DNA of 64,000 nucleotides, taken from positions 31,982-95,981 of the forward strand of contig CAVXTE010000001.1 of NCBI GenBank assembly GCA_963764475.1. Direction: 5' to 3'. Below the pieces are notes generated by a model, which made no database searches, was not told the origin of the DNA, and saw nothing but the letters and a program-made list of their open reading frames with translations. Position 1 is the first letter of the stretch. Every line of letters starts with the position of its first letter. Below are positions 30,317 to 36,000 of this stretch, piece after piece. A program made the position numbers and the translations under genes. Source of the DNA: an uncultured Bacteroidales bacterium (lineage in GTDB: Bacteria; Bacteroidota; Bacteroidia; Bacteroidales; JAADJA01).

Positions 30317-32779
30317 TTAATCATCCTTGTCACTACTTTCGACCAATAGAAAAGCTGAATGAACCGGAGGCGGACAATCATCGGTTCCTTTTACTGCAAA
30401 CCAGATCACTTTATTGAATTCATCGTCGGGAACCCTGTCTTCGATCGAAAAATCAAATTTCTCACTCATTTTTTGCCATCTGTTCAGAGCGACATTCTTT
30501 TCGTTCAGGTCGACCCCGGCAGGCAATGATTTAAAACCCGTGATATTCACTGTATCGTTAAAACAGCGCCACATCGGCGTAGCGGCAGCATCGTACTGGC
30601 TCATCGGAGGCAGACCAAGGATAAGTTCTATGGTACGCAGCATGGATGATGTAGAATACATCGTATGATCGACAAAATTTCGTTTAACATATCCACCGGC
30701 CAGGTAAGCTGTGGTTCGGTGGGCATCCACATGATCGGGGCCGTTCTGTGCGTCATCTTCAACAATAAAAACGATACTATTTTTCCAAATCGGGCTGTGG
30801 CTCAGATATTCCACAAAGAGACCAACCGCCAGATCATTATCTGCAACCTGAGCGAATGGAGTCGGTTTTCCTTTTCGTAATCCCATCGTATGATCATTAA
30901 TGAAGCGCAAGGTATTGAGCTGTGGAACCGCATCAATTCTTAGCAATGAATCAAAATCCCGTTTCCACTGGCTGAACCTTGTCGTATCCTTTACGGATTG
31001 ATCCCAGCTTGTATAATAACGGCAGTAATGATTTTCAAGCACAGGTATATTGGGCTTATAATCATCAGTAAATTCCCCATAAGTGCGGTAACTAATTCCA
31101 TATTTTTTGCAATAGTCCCAGATAAATCCATTCTTATTATTGGCGATTTCCCGGGTCCCTTCGGCATTGTAGAATCCTCCCCGACCGCCATAACTTGTCG
31201 GCCAGTTTTTTTCGAGGAAATCGGTCGCATAGGCACCCGTACTCCAGTTGTGGCCGTCAGCACTGACTTCTCCATCGACATAAAAATTATCAAGCAAAAC
31301 AAAATCATTTGCAAGCGCATGCTGATTCGGTGTGATATTTTTGCCGAATAAGAGAAGGGTTGTATCCCCGTTCCCTTCCGGCATATCACCAAGAACCTGA
31401 TCATATGTTCGGTTTTCTTTGATGATATAAAATATATGCTTTACAGGTGAAGCATCACCGGTATGCAGTGGAACAGGATTACTGTTCTGGCCTGAAGTCG
31501 TGAATTCCAGCTCCTTTTTGTAAGGCGTATTATGATAAACCACAAGTGAAAAAATACCTAATTGATCGGCATCCGGAACCGGGATCATGCTCATGGTTCC
31601 CCTGAAAAGACCGGCAATGTATTGTTCTTTTCGCGATACAACAGAATCGCCTTTCTGATAGAATACCTTTTGCCCTTTTCTGGCTGGGTTTGGGCCATAG
31701 GGATTTGCCATCGAAGAAAAGCCTTTTCCATTGGCGACAAAAATCGTTTGATCGACCACACGGACACAGGTCGGATACCAGCCTGCCGGTATAAAACCTT
31801 TACCCGAACTTTTTCCCGGCTGGCTAACATCAAATACTGCCAGGTAGTTGTTATCAGCATTTGCAACAAAAAGCGTTTTCCCATCTTCGCTCAAAGCCAC
31901 ACTGTTGGTGGTCGAACCGGTTGGGGCATCAGGATATAAAGCGGTATTAAGCGTTTCGATGACTTCGCGGTTTTTCAAATCAATCACTGAAACCGTATTA
32001 TCATTTGCATTTGCGACGAATAAAAAATTACCATCGTTTGTCAGACACATATCGTTTGGATTATCTCCTACCATGATCGAACCCAAGAATTGCTCGCTAT
32101 ACGTATCAAACAGAATGATTTTATCACACCCCCAGCAAGAAATGTAAAGTACTTTTTTATCCGGTGAAAGAAGGCAGGTGTAGCCTTCTCCGCCTAAAGG
32201 AAACCGTTTGACCGAATTATTTTTTTGAAGATCGATAACATACAACGAATTGTTTTCAGTTGTCACAGCATACAGGGCATTTCGTTTATCGTCAACTGCA
32301 ATTCCTGACGGTGAAATTGTCTCGGGCCACGGTTTACCAATGACGAGTGTATCAGAAGGGACCAACTTTTTTTTACGAACGTCGAACCGTACAATCCAGT
32401 TATCATTTCCCCCGGAAGCGTACAGGCTTTTATCATCATCACTAAATGCGAGGCCAATCCAGGCCTTGCCAACAACAATCGTATCCAGTGTTGATTGTTT
32501 TTCCGCATCGATCAGTTGGATGGTTTGGTCGCTCTGGCCATTGTTTGTTACGGCCAGCATTTTTTTTGAATGGGACACGGCAATGTTCAGAGGCAGATCA
32601 CCAAGCGGGATGCTCTTACCAACCGGAGTAATTGCCCAGCCATTCGGCAGGTGTATTCTTCCAGATTCGATTTCCGAAAGGGACTGGCATATTGATCTCC
32701 CCGGCAGTATCATCATTACTAAAAGTATAAGCGATATACCAATATTTAGTTTCATTGTATGTGTGGTTTCAAATAACAT
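30317..32779 (-). CDS. secreted YncE-like beta-propeller fused to a phosphoesterase (PLC/AcpA family) domain
   Basis: 820 aa with a signal peptide. The N-terminal half has repeated propeller blades (LYVIDL, LFVANA, VSVIDL). The C-terminal half has IIKENRTYDQVLGD, typical of the phosphoesterase family. Confidence 0.7.
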   Translation of the reverse strand: MLFETTHTMKLNIGISLILLVMMILPGRSICQSLSEIESGRIHLPNGWAITPVGKSIPLGDLPLNIAVSHSKKMLAVTNNGQSDQTIQLIDAEKQSTLDTIVVGKAWIGLAFSDDDKSLYASGGNDNWIVRFDVRKKKLVPSDTLVIGKPWPETISPSGIAVDDKRNALYAVTTENNSLYVIDLQKNNSVKRFPLGGEGYTCLLSPDKKVLYISCWGCDKIILFDTYSEQFLGSIMVGDNPNDMCLTNDGNFLFVANANDNTVSVIDLKNREVIETLNTALYPDAPTGSTTNSVALSEDGKTLFVANADNNYLAVFDVSQPGKSSGKGFIPAGWYPTCVRVVDQTIFVANGKGFSSMANPYGPNPARKGQKVFYQKGDSVVSRKEQYIAGLFRGTMSMIPVPDADQLGIFSLVVYHNTPYKKELEFTTSGQNSNPVPLHTGDASPVKHIFYIIKENRTYDQVLGDMPEGNGDTTLLLFGKNITPNQHALANDFVLLDNFYVDGEVSADGHNWSTGAYATDFLEKNWPTSYGGRGGFYNAEGTREIANNKNGFIWDYCKKYGISYRTYGEFTDDYKPNIPVLENHYCRYYTSWDQSVKDTTRFSQWKRDFDSLLRIDAVPQLNTLRFINDHTMGLRKGKPTPFAQVADNDLAVGLFVEYLSHSPIWKNSIVFIVEDDAQNGPDHVDAHRTTAYLAGGYVKRNFVDHTMYSTSSMLRTIELILGLPPMSQYDAAATPMWRCFNDTVNITGFKSLPAGVDLNEKNVALNRWQKMSEKFDFSIEDRVPDDEFNKVIWFAVKGTDDCPPPVHSAFLLVESSDKDD

Positions 32780-33027
32780 ATTTTATAAAATTTGAACATA
32801 GCAATCCGTTTATCATTTTATCAGTTCAAAAATAGTAAAACAAAACAATTAAATTTTTCTTACAACAAAGAACTTTTCGCTTGCTCAATTGTTTCATTTA
32901 TGTATTGCATTTATAAATGAAGATTGTATCACCAATTTAAAAAAACAGACAGTAATACAGAAAGGTGCTACATTTAGGATAAAGGTAATATAATTAAGGT
33001 AAAAGATTTTACCCAGACGCTATGAAG

Positions 33028-33061
33028 AACCCGGATGATAAAACATCCGGGTTTATTTTTT
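33028..33061 (+). terminator. orphan intrinsic terminator
   Basis: 10-bp stem AACCCGGATG / CATCCGGGTT with a 6-nt loop, followed by TATTTTTT. There is no annotated plus-strand gene upstream. Confidence 0.6.
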
Positions 33062-33170
33062 GTGCATAATTCTGCTTGTTCTTTTTTTAGTGAACAAACT
33101 TTTAAATAAGAATCCCTGATATTTCCAAATCCCAAAATCAGATTCACTACAAATATTTTCAGCTAAAAAC

Positions 33171-33315
33171 AAAAAAAGCCGGAATACTCCAGCCAGTTGA
33201 AAGGTTCCTTTTTGGATACCTTCATCGCGACAATCTCCTCATCTTTGCCCATTGCCGCTCTTATTTCCGCAAAAATGAAATTCTTGTTCATCAATGCTTT
33301 CTGTTTACAAAAATA
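33171..33315 (-). repeat. paralogous ~145-bp element, copy 1 (candidate ~130-nt sRNA or 42-aa micro-ORF on the minus strand)
   Basis: 94/100 nt identical (hand count) to 34147-34246. Minus-strand TAttTTTG box at 33308-33315. Minus-strand hairpin GCUGGA-GUAU-UCCGGC (33178-33193) followed by U7 (33171-33177). Confidence 0.8.
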
Positions 33316-33498
33316 AAGTTGTAATGCTAACCCCCAATTAGGCCTCCTTCGTAATTAGACCGCATTTATCACCTGCATTTGCTATGCATTCCCTTATAAT
33401 TGCTCAAGTGTTCAAGGCAGGCCTTTGTGCTAAAGCGTCACTTGTGCTCAGTATCCGAAAAATAATTCTATTCTATAGTTACATCTGCCAGTTATTCT

Positions 33499-33506
33499 TA
33501 ATTTTG
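33499..33506 (+). promoter_or_regulatory. Bacteroidota -7 box TAatTTTG for the toxin-antitoxin operon
   Basis: Exact TAnnTTTG, 26 nt upstream of the ATG at 33533. Confidence 0.4.
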
Positions 33507-33532
33507 CAACTTGAGTATCAAATATTTTAAAA

Positions 33533-33715
33533 ATGAAAGTAATTCTTGATATACAAGAAAGCAAAGCACCCTTTTTTATCGAATTGGTTAATGGATTGAA
33601 ATATATACGGATTATCAAACAAGTGAAAGATAAGCGCAAAAGCGCTGCAATACAGGATATCGTTGAGGCATTCAATGATGTGATGTTACATGAAGAAGGG
33701 AAAAAGAACGCTTAA
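33533..33715 (+). CDS. putative antitoxin of the RelE/ParE-type module (apparently truncated by a frameshift)
   Basis: 60-aa ORF directly upstream of the toxin. After ...LHEEGKK the frame starting at 33708 reads TLKSANQILDEI* and ends at 33746, overlapping the toxin start by 11 nt. Confidence 0.55.
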   Translation: MKVILDIQESKAPFFIELVNGLKYIRIIKQVKDKRKSAAIQDIVEAFNDVMLHEEGKKNA

Positions 33716-33735
33716 ATCTGCAAATCAGATTTTAG

Positions 33736-34068
33736 ATGAGATTTAATGTTGTCGCCACAGAAAACTTCGAGAGAAAAGTCAAACGGTTGGCGAAGAAATA
33801 TAAATCCCTGAAAGCTGACTTAAAGCCTGTTTTCGACCAATTAGAAACAATTCCCAAGCTTGGTACAGCCATTGGAAATGATTGTTATAAAATCAGGATA
33901 GCAATCAATTCTAAAGGAAGGGGTAAATCTGGAGGTGCCAGGATTATCACTTATGTCAGGTACATGAAAGACACAGTTTACCTGATTGACATATATGATA
34001 AATCAGAAAAGGCATCTATCACCGAAAGAGAAATAGTAGAACTGATTGCATTAATTCTGGGTCAATAA
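33736..34068 (+). CDS. type II toxin, RelE/ParE superfamily
   Basis: 110 aa. The pattern F.R..K.L.KKY..L..D...KIRI..S.KGRGKSGGARIITYV is typical of RelE-like mRNA interferases. Confidence 0.75.
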   Translation: MRFNVVATENFERKVKRLAKKYKSLKADLKPVFDQLETIPKLGTAIGNDCYKIRIAINSKGRGKSGGARIITYVRYMKDTVYLIDIYDKSEKASITEREIVELIALILGQ

Positions 34069-34146
34069 ATTTGATTGGATGATAATTTAAATTCTATTCT
34101 CCTTTAACATTAATCCTTCACCATCCTTATTGGTAATTTTACCAAC

Positions 34147-34289
34147 AAAAAAAGCCGGAAAACTCCAGCCAGTTGAAAGGTTCCTTTTTGGATTCCTTCT
34201 TTGCGACAATCTGCTCATCTTTGGCCATTGCCGCTCTTATTTCCGCAATGATGTTGAAATTACACCATTGTTTTCTGCTTGCAAAAGTA
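34147..34289 (-). repeat. paralogous ~145-bp element, copy 2 (candidate ~130-nt sRNA)
   Basis: Matches copy 1. Minus-strand TActTTTG box at 34282-34289. Hairpin GCUGGA-GUUU-UCCGGC (34154-34169) followed by U7 (34147-34153). Confidence 0.8.
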
Positions 34290-34515
34290 ATCGAATAAAT
34301 CCTCCTGAATCTTAAGTTAACATTAATTTTTTTACTTTTTTTATATCGAATAACCAACGAAGAGAAACAAAAAAGAGAAAGTCGAGAATTAATCTTTCGT
34401 CTTGCTTTTTTCTGTTAAATTTGAACACTTAATACTGATAGACAGATGTATGCATCTCGATATATTATTTTTTCATGAATTAAGGAATTGAATCCTGATT
34501 AAATAAATATTATTT

Positions 34516-36000
34516 ATGAGTAAAAAAATTATCATCATCGGCGGTGGCATTGCGGGATTGTCCGCTGGTATATATGGCCGGATGAACGGTTACGAAACGG
34601 AAATCATCGAAATGAATAAAATTCCTGGAGGTCAGTGTACCGCCTGGGATCGTAAAGGATATCGTTTCGATTATTGTCTTCACTGGCTTGTAGGTACAAA
34701 GAAAGGCCCTTTTCACAGGATATGGCAGGAAACCGGCGTTTTAAATCCCGACGTTAAAATCCTGGATCATGAAATTCATACATTGCTTGTAGATGAAAAT
34801 GGGAATGAGTTTATCGTTTATACCAATGCTGATCGATGGGAAAAATACCTACTCGAACTGGCGCCGGAAGATGCCGTACCTATCCGGAAAATGTGTATGC
34901 ACATTCGGAAAGGATCTAAACTCGAAGCGTTTGAAAATGCTCCCGGTGTAAGGAAATTCAAGGAATATTTTCCGGGTTTACTGAAAATGCTTCCTGCCCT
35001 TTTGCTGATTATTAAATACAGCAAAAAAAGCACGCTTGAGTATTTCAGGGAGTTGAATTTCAAAAATGAACGCCTTAAACGTTTTTTGTTCGACTTTTTT
35101 ACTGAGAACAATATGTCTGCCATAGCATTCATCGGGATGCTCGGCTGGTTTCAACAAAATAATGCAGGTTATCTTATCGGGGGGTCACTGCCAATCACCC
35201 AACGGATGGCAGAGAAATATAAATCACTGGGTGGTATTCTTAAAACAAGTAAAAAGGTTGAAAAGATTATTGTTGAAAATAATAATGCCACTGGAGTTGT
35301 TTTAACAGACGGAACAAAAATCATGGCTGATTTTGTCGTTGGAGCAGCCGATGGACATTCAATAATCTTTGATATGTTGGGAGGTAAATACATTTCGAAA
35401 GAAATTGATACAGCCTATAAAACATGGCCGCTTTTCCCATCACTGGTTCAGGTTTCATTTGGAATCGGCAAGGAAGTAAAGACTGATTTTACATTGCAAA
35501 GTGTTGTTATGAAAGGCGAAAAGATTGGAAATACAATTTTGGAATCACCCTGCTCAATCATGAATTATTGCTATGACCCGACACTGTCACCAGAAGGTAA
35601 AACAGCGATTGTAATTCGTTACGAAAGTCCGTGGGAAATTTGGGAAAATATGGCTGAAGAAGAGTATAAAGCAGAAAAGAAACAAATTGAAAAAGATGCA
35701 ATGGTCATTCTTGAAAAGCGGTATCCGGGGATTTCAGGACACATTGAAGTTGTAGATGTGGCAACACCGAGAACAAGTGTAGAGTATACCGGGGTTTGGA
35801 AAGGTGCATACGAAGGTTTTCTGCCTACTAAAAACAACATGACCAAAGTATTAAAAATGACGTTGCCCGGTCTCGATCACTTTTATCTGATCGGGCAGTG
35901 GTTGTATCCCGGCGGTGGACTTCCACCCTCTGCTCAGTCAGGGAAATGGGCCATTCAGCTTATATGCAAGAAAGACAAAGTAAACTTTAACGTACATTAA
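34516..36000 (+). CDS. phytoene desaturase (CrtI)-like NAD(P)/FAD-dependent oxidoreductase
   Basis: 494 aa. N-terminal IIIIGGGIAGLSAG dinucleotide fold. The C-terminal GQWLYPGGGLP is typical of CrtI-family amine-oxidase-fold enzymes. Confidence 0.7.
   Translation: MSKKIIIIGGGIAGLSAGIYGRMNGYETEIIEMNKIPGGQCTAWDRKGYRFDYCLHWLVGTKKGPFHRIWQETGVLNPDVKILDHEIHTLLVDENGNEFIVYTNADRWEKYLLELAPEDAVPIRKMCMHIRKGSKLEAFENAPGVRKFKEYFPGLLKMLPALLLIIKYSKKSTLEYFRELNFKNERLKRFLFDFFTENNMSAIAFIGMLGWFQQNNAGYLIGGSLPITQRMAEKYKSLGGILKTSKKVEKIIVENNNATGVVLTDGTKIMADFVVGAADGHSIIFDMLGGKYISKEIDTAYKTWPLFPSLVQVSFGIGKEVKTDFTLQSVVMKGEKIGNTILESPCSIMNYCYDPTLSPEGKTAIVIRYESPWEIWENMAEEEYKAEKKQIEKDAMVILEKRYPGISGHIEVVDVATPRTSVEYTGVWKGAYEGFLPTKNNMTKVLKMTLPGLDHFYLIGQWLYPGGGLPPSAQSGKWAIQLICKKDKVNFNVH

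Follow-up and report, generated by a model that had tools for sequence, protein, structure and literature searches.

We analysed a 64,000-nt stretch of contig CAVXTE010000001.1 from an uncultured salt-marsh Bacteroidales bacterium (assembly GCA_963764475.1, positions 31,982 to 95,981; hereafter the window), in which two copies of a compact minus-strand unit lie on either side of a RelE-type toxin-antitoxin (TA) cassette. On balance, the unit appears to be a functional stand-alone gene for a non-coding small RNA (sRNA), read from the minus strand and belonging to a narrow lineage of uncultured Bacteroidales. It is plausibly a new, narrowly distributed, lineage-specific sRNA family of known type that was duplicated at this locus.

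A repeat search returned a direct repeat of 110 nt with 93% identity (33168-33277 and 34144-34253, 976 nt apart). Using blastn the similarity stretched to 152 nt at 85% identity (33316-33168 versus 34290-34144), with indels in the 5′ part, and the 103-nt cores of copy 1 and copy 2 are 94% identical to each other. Two core words of 22-28 nt each occurred exactly twice in the window and not once in 100 shuffles, and a covariance-model search detected no third unit copy in the 64 kb. The preliminary description of this DNA had proposed two near-identical copies with a RelE-type TA cassette between them. Both parts of that proposal agree with our data, the pair through the repeat itself and the layout through the open reading frames (ORFs) and a match to PF06296. 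The duplicated segment is almost exactly one gene, reaching from about -40 to the U-tract.

Each copy has a minus-strand -7 box of the Bacteroidota σABfr type, TAnnTTTG, which was found at 33315-33308 and 34289-34282, where it had been described before. In the four sequences compared for this element (copy 1, copy 2, a sister locus termed L078 and strain variant X1) the box reads TATTTTTG, TACTTTTG, TACTTTTG and TAGTTTTG, respectively, and the variation is confined to the two ‘n’ positions (TAT.., TAC.., TAG..). The background frequency of TAnnTTTG in the window is about 0.54 per kb per strand. At the other end, a minus-strand terminator of the form GGCUGGA-N4-UCCGGCU followed by U7 is located at 33194-33177 and 34170-34153. 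The hairpin and the U7 tract had been noted earlier and are present in both copies, but the stem contains seven pairs when the G-U pairs are counted, not six. This G+C-rich 7-bp stem and the U7 tract recur in every unit sequence compared; changes are located in the loop, apart from one C>U opposite G in variant X4. From the promoter box and the terminator we derived the boundaries of both predicted transcripts. As single sequences, copy 1 and copy 2 gave fold z-scores of -3.25 and -4.21. The unit is intergenic, the gene upstream being divergent and, in L078, the gene downstream being convergent. In Bacteroides, the TAnnTTTG consensus is established and a promoter together with a terminator defines ‘high-confidence intergenic sRNAs’ (PMC7366714); an own σABfr promoter, a Rho-independent terminator and an intergenic position are all found here.

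The sister locus was obtained by scanning one genome per GTDB species with patterns from two peptide-frame translations. Among 185,579 species genomes only one unit locus was confirmed, L078, in a metagenome-assembled genome of an uncultured Bacteroidales. L078 is syntenic with the window, with genes for DUF418, DUF169 and a CrtI-like oxidoreductase, then the unit and a YncE/phosphoesterase gene (74-87% amino acid identity). Its single unit agrees with copy 2 in the -7 box and shares the stems and the terminator; TA genes are absent. Either window copy is identical to the L078 core at 93 of 103 positions (blastn, 90.6% over 106 nt), which is above the 75-81% identity of the flanking coding DNA, and the immediate up- and downstream flanks of the unit are poorly conserved between the two genomes. 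Since L078 has the unit without the TA genes, the unit predates the cassette; it is the older resident gene and the TA insertion is secondary.

For the analysis of secondary structure, three full sequences (copy 1, copy 2, L078) were combined with four variants that we reconstructed from the listed differences of Logan contigs in salt-marsh runs. A MAFFT alignment of the seven sequences put the gap in the first stem-loop (SL1) out of structural register, and pairs were counted by script on an earlier column frame. RNAalifold gave one architecture for all sequences, consisting of SL1, a linker, SL2 with a 16-nt loop, SL3 and the terminator. Across the seven sequences 94.5% of the pair cells were canonical. 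Variable core columns were less frequent among paired (6 of 48) than among unpaired columns (18 of 51; Fisher p=0.01), and pairing was kept in five of the six stem changes: three are C>U opposite G (columns 50, 75 and 126), one is A>G opposite U (column 83) and one replaces G-U by A-U (column 81). Read on the plus strand, these five would be C-A mismatches; that they pair on the minus strand only speaks for an RNA transcribed from that strand rather than for duplex DNA. Thus, the variation in the unit is structure-compatible and strand-specific.

The individual elements evolve at different rates. In the SL2 stem the sole changes were C>U opposite G with pairing retained, and in its loop at least eight positions vary, in addition to indels. 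Although the SL1 sequences share only about 65% identity, the 9-10-bp hairpin of each version beats shuffled sequences (p=0.03 for copy 1, 0.0015 for copy 2 and 0.003 for a third version). Its pair 16-26 occurs as AU, UA or CG and its pair 11-31 as UA or AU, and one of the mismatches of copy 1 SL1 becomes A-U in variants X3 and X7. Between SL1 and SL2 lies a conserved unpaired stretch, GCGGAAAU....

Several observations weigh against an sRNA gene. The comparative set is small, closely related and phylogenetically non-independent, so that its statistics are indicative only, and a test of the wobble-type changes was modest (p=0.02-0.07). The internal SL3 pair 86-99 is broken at column 86 in copy 2 and X3; several sequences have mismatched positions in SL1, whose pair 11-31 is broken by one X1 variant. 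No long invariant single-stranded seed stands out in the unit; columns 42 and 44 of the linker are variable, as is the UCAAC spacer in X4 and in a homologue from a cave metagenome. No -33 TTTG element was evident at the unit promoters. A search of RNA-only public runs with the unit listed no run, and the only RNA-library signal at the window locus was a single 151-nt contig of salt-marsh metatranscriptome X5, which lies with 99% identity over the antitoxin gene (33545-33695) and may reflect DNA carry-over. Finally, RNAduplex against 45 start regions and a search for 11-mer complementarity in the window both gave background levels, revealing no target there. Contigs of two soil metatranscriptomes (X8, X9) cover a DUF3764 gene of L078 only.

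The cassette between the copies consists of a small antitoxin gene followed by a gene for a RelE-fold toxin, as in type II TA systems of the RelE family. As written, the antitoxin frame has 60 codons. Removal of one A from the run 33701-33705 gives 70 amino acids ending at 33746, a form that aligns with the 70-aa antitoxins of relatives and shares with them (L079, L080) the exact 11-nt overlap with the toxin start. Contigs of three other salt-marsh runs have one base fewer at 33707/33708; the shortened frame is either a homopolymer error of the assembly or a real truncation. Toxin homologues with 65-81% identity occur in many unrelated contexts, none of them in viral contigs, and exact-protein look-ups had neither the toxin nor the oxidoreductase on record. 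Together with about 125 nt upstream, the cassette (33409-34083) matches contigs of an unrelated cave metagenome at 92% identity (run X6; one contig covers 33409-33672 at 92%), whereas the flanking housekeeping genes matched this run in short pieces at 85% identity or less. This difference indicates recent horizontal spread; the cassette is both secondary and horizontally mobile. We saw no sign of a functional link between cassette and units; L078 has the unit without TA genes and TA homologues elsewhere occur without the unit (0 of 13 loci examined). The TA operon lacks a terminator of its own (34069-34143), and on the plus strand the copy 2 hairpin has a C-A mismatch and no U-tract. Given this and the convergence of the toxin gene with copy 2, TA transcription may run antisense through copy 2.

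How the two copies arose is a separate matter. Of the two ancestral flanks, the upstream one is found beside copy 2 and the downstream one beside copy 1. In their 5′ parts, the SL1 regions, the copies are about 63% identical, a divergence equal to that of either copy from L078. Salt-marsh strain variants of copy 1 (X2, X3, X4 and X7; 33166-33303) are mosaics of copy-1-like, copy-2-like and L078-like states, most clearly in the SL2 loop and at columns 80, 86 and 117-119. For example, X3 combines an L078-like SL2 loop with copy-2-like bases at columns 80 and 86, and X7 joins the SL1 of copy 1 to an L078-like core. These mosaics suggest gene conversion between the paralogues or recombination among strains.

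Two histories fit the arrangement equally well: either the unit was duplicated in tandem and the cassette inserted afterwards, or a single homologous crossover took place with a donor that carried the cassette and a divergent unit. According to the latter, which we regard as possible but rather unlikely as an explanation of the pair, the copies are a by-product of the arrival of the cassette by Campbell-type recombination of a circular or linear donor with the resident unit. The repeats would then act like attL/attR and could delete or mobilise the cassette again. The split of the ancestral flanks between the copies fits a single crossover, as do the near-exact limits of the duplicated segment, the contrast between 5′ parts that differ as much as from L078 and cores that are 94% identical, and the horizontal mobility of the cassette; moreover, a single cave metagenome holds both the 92% cassette and a unit homologue at 85%. 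On the other hand, with no unit beside any of the 13 TA homologues a donor of the required kind did not appear, the flanks of the unit homologue in the cave run are unlike the cassette, and neither excision joints nor TA-less alleles were seen in the four salt-marsh runs, which have short contigs and 2-5x coverage. The plain duplication explains the same facts equally well. Such a crossover and an sRNA gene are not mutually exclusive.

It is also conceivable, if improbable, that direct repeats and cassette function together, in one of two ways. Recombination between the sRNA gene copies could excise the cassette as a circle with one copy, which would re-enter any genome with a resident sRNA gene, the latter serving as ‘landing pad’ for a cassette without integrase. 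Alternatively, the addiction module could kill recombinants and thereby lock in an otherwise unstable sRNA duplication.

Conservation of the unit at the nucleotide level beside the same genes in two genomes, and the inverted repeats it contains, would also be expected of a DNA-level or cis-acting element that yields no free RNA, such as protein-binding inverted repeats, a terminator module or a leader. We consider such an element quite improbable. No co-oriented gene lies upstream of the unit, and the downstream gene of L078 (DUF3764) is convergent, which leaves neither a 5′ leader nor a 3′ untranslated region. Moreover, the G-U-type changes pair on one strand only, as expected of RNA and not of duplex DNA, and the -7 box is conserved at the right distance.

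Still less probable, in our estimate, is a plus-strand hydrophobic peptide for which the minus-strand RNA would be the antisense partner, similar to a type I TA system. A TTG-start ORF of 35-41 aa (MKGSFLDTFIATISSSLPIAALISAK...) is present on the plus strand at 33197-33316 and 34173-34298 and antisense to 5989-6126 in L078. No stop codon interrupts this frame within the core of copy 1, copy 2 or L078, its peptide is moderately hydrophobic, and X4 turns TTG into GTG, which is still a start codon. In contrast, no TAnnTTTG box precedes it on the plus strand, the start is not ATG and is lost in the cave homologue (CAAC>ACAC), the C-terminal third is unlike in sequence and length in every copy, and the peptide has no Pfam match. 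Synonymous to non-synonymous columns stand at 3:10 or 4:9, hence there is no coding constraint, and the five wobble-type stem changes fit the minus-strand structure only. A type I system of peptide and antisense RNA was rejected, since promoter box, constraint and a conserved start are all missing.

That the unit encodes a 42-aa minus-strand peptide (MNKNFIFAEIRAAMGKDEEIVAMKVSKKEPFNWLEYSGFFCF) is largely refuted and hardly credible: copy 1, copy 2 and variant X7 all have the frame open, and a gene caller called it once (P0001), but it has its ATG (at 33291) in copy 1 and lacks it in copy 2 and L078, contains an in-frame TAA at codon 17 in L078 (...AAMAG*) and X3, runs through the terminator hairpin and the U-tract, and is changed non-synonymously at 12 of 13 variable core columns. 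The course of this frame through the terminator of copy 1 and the missing ATG of copy 2 had been pointed out in the preliminary description and were seen again here. None of the six frames exhibited codon-like variation (1-5 synonymous versus 8-12 non-synonymous columns each). A word-indexed search of 5.8 billion proteins returned only the ORF of the window itself, a profile hidden Markov model search of 1.84 billion representatives likewise only this ORF, and Pfam and NCBIfam gave no match. The preliminary description had preferred RNA over protein, and among the outcomes it named against this reading were two that concern homologous sequences. With regard to the first, a remnant of a longer protein gene, no longer protein similar to the unit was found and this possibility was rejected; with regard to the second, a conserved start with third-position variation, the start is lost and the pattern is not codon-like. 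Altogether, every refutation test that could be run favoured RNA, in support of the earlier preference.

The distribution of the unit is narrow. It had not been recognised as a known RNA family in the preliminary description, and Rfam 15 contains none that fits: a permissive scan of 32500-35000 gave chance matches only, the best overlapping one reaching 22.5 bits against a gathering score of 85 (E=3.5). Plasmid and phage collections gave no match to the unit. A dispersed repeat or miniature inverted-repeat transposable element was rejected, as the two copies in 64 kb belong to one locus and a single locus was confirmed across the 185,579 species genomes. A metagenome scan by way of the neighbouring oxidoreductase yielded 77 loci, all with at most 62% amino acid identity, no synteny and no unit, and a protein search with the oxidoreductase gave nothing closer than 64%. 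The host lineage is poorly sampled. In the cave run X6, a 438-nt contig matches the 3′ half of the unit (window 34144-34214) at 60 of 71 positions, and recognisable similarity continues into SL2 (GCGGUUAUGG...), whereas the flanks differ; this homologue was read from the listed differences away from the ends of aligned pieces and not from the full sequence. Hence, the unit family probably extends beyond this lineage.

The unit resembles the ‘high-confidence’ intergenic sRNAs of B. thetaiotaomicron such as GibS (Ryan et al. 2020, PMC7366714). It shares with them the intergenic position, an own σABfr -7 promoter, a 3′ Rho-independent terminator, a length of 100-150 nt and a GC content of about 40%, and by analogy it would probably act in trans independently of Hfq and ProQ. 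Unlike this class it is more structured, with four hairpins and no long single-stranded 5′ seed, and its occurrence is limited to an uncultured environmental Bacteroidales lineage. In sequence and structure it matches no Rfam 15 family, and the families covered include GibS/FopS and other Bacteroidales motifs. Paralogous sRNA sets include OmrA/OmrB and the tandem PrrF1/PrrF2, and as in such sets each duplicated copy of the unit retains promoter and terminator. Another such set is FopS, with 14 copies in B. thetaiotaomicron (PMC11697453). As in FopS, the paralogues share one conserved part and differ in another, but FopS conserves a 5′ seed whereas the unit conserves its 3′ two-thirds and varies in the 5′ hairpin; furthermore, there are two copies only, in one of two genomes. 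The TA cassette between its copies also sets the unit apart from these paralogous sets. The inserted cassette, in turn, is like RelE/RelB type II systems in having a small antitoxin gene followed by the gene of a 110-aa RelE-family toxin. In its relatives the two genes overlap by 11 nt and stand in many unrelated contexts; unlike these, the window cassette has an antitoxin frame shortened by one extra A.

Taken as an sRNA gene, the unit may work as follows. A σABfr-type promoter would drive a transcript of about 135 nt that folds into SL1, an unpaired stretch, SL2, SL3 and the terminator. In the ancestral state, preserved by L078, a single copy has the YncE-phosphoesterase gene on one side and the oxidoreductase and DUF169 genes on the other; in the lineage of the window the whole gene (about -40 to terminator) is duplicated, and a mobile RelE-type TA cassette sits between the copies, which appear to exchange sequence by gene conversion. 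We infer that the RNA is transcribed and most likely regulates in trans, either through base-pairing with target mRNAs or through a protein that it binds. Most of the differences between the paralogues are in SL1 and in the loop of SL2, and these elements may adjust specificity.

Nearly all known regulatory RNAs of Bacteroidota come from gut Bacteroides, and environmental Bacteroidales are essentially uncharted in this respect. With this locus comes a candidate family not contained in Rfam, which has clear gene boundaries and a structure to which strand-specific compatible changes lend support. Having one copy in one sister genome and two in the other, it lends itself to work on the divergence of sRNA paralogues, here with a 5′ hairpin and one loop that change fast while the rest is frozen. 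In addition, where a TA cassette is placed between direct repeats, as here, recombination and post-segregational killing act on one another. For the time being the impact is modest, because the family is narrow, expression is only predicted and no target is proposed. The coordinates of the features in the window are compiled in Table 1.

Table 1. Predicted features of the two unit copies and of the TA cassette between them (window coordinates)
Feature	Position	Strand	Remarks
Copy 1, -7 box TATTTTTG	33308..33315	-	Bacteroidota σABfr type, TAnnTTTG; position kept in copy 2, L078 and X1
Copy 1, predicted transcript (~135 nt)	33168..33303	-	from ~5 nt past the -7 box to the end of the U-tract
Copy 1, SL1	33270..33296	-	fast-evolving 5′ hairpin, 9-10 bp, two U-U mismatches
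Copy 1, SL2	33227..33258	-	8-bp stem GCGGCAAU/AUUGUCGC, hypervariable 16-nt loop
Copy 1, SL3	33200..33223	-	GAAGGUAUCC-AAAAA-GGAACCUUU; columns 81 and 83 change compatibly
Copy 1, intrinsic terminator	33171..33194	-	7-bp stem, loop GUAU, then U7
Candidate -7 box of TA operon TAATTTTG	33499..33506	+	27 nt before antitoxin ATG
Antitoxin gene	33533..33715	+	60 aa as written
RelE-family toxin gene	33736..34068	+	PF06296, E=1.6e-7; 110 aa; convergent with copy 2
Copy 2, -7 box TACTTTTG	34282..34289	-	strain variant X1 reads TAGTTTTG
Copy 2, predicted transcript (~134 nt)	34144..34277	-	ancestral upstream flank toward oxidoreductase gene kept
Copy 2, SL1	34246..34270	-	perfect 9-bp hairpin CAAUGGUGU/ACAUCAUUG
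Copy 2, SL2	34203..34234	-	fold and RNAalifold
Copy 2, SL3	34176..34199	-	fold and RNAalifold
Copy 2, intrinsic terminator	34147..34170	-	loop GUUU, then U7

The comparison with L078 revealed further differences in the neighbourhood of the unit. In the window, a strong plus-strand terminator hairpin at 33027-33054 has no gene before it (32780-33026). The homologous hairpin in L078 ends a gene for an 87-aa DUF3764 protein (PF12594; L078 6225-6488). This gene is deleted in the window, where only about 80 nt around the hairpin still align. On its other side, the unit of L078 is preceded by an extra minus-strand gene (L078 5373-5768) for a predicted membrane protein of 131 aa without Pfam match, which lies between oxidoreductase gene and unit and lacks a counterpart in the window. 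The oxidoreductase gene of L078 (3969-5502) is split by a frameshift, possibly a long-read assembly error, into ORFs of 458 and 69 aa, and it is due to this split that the protein database contains no close homologue of the oxidoreductase.

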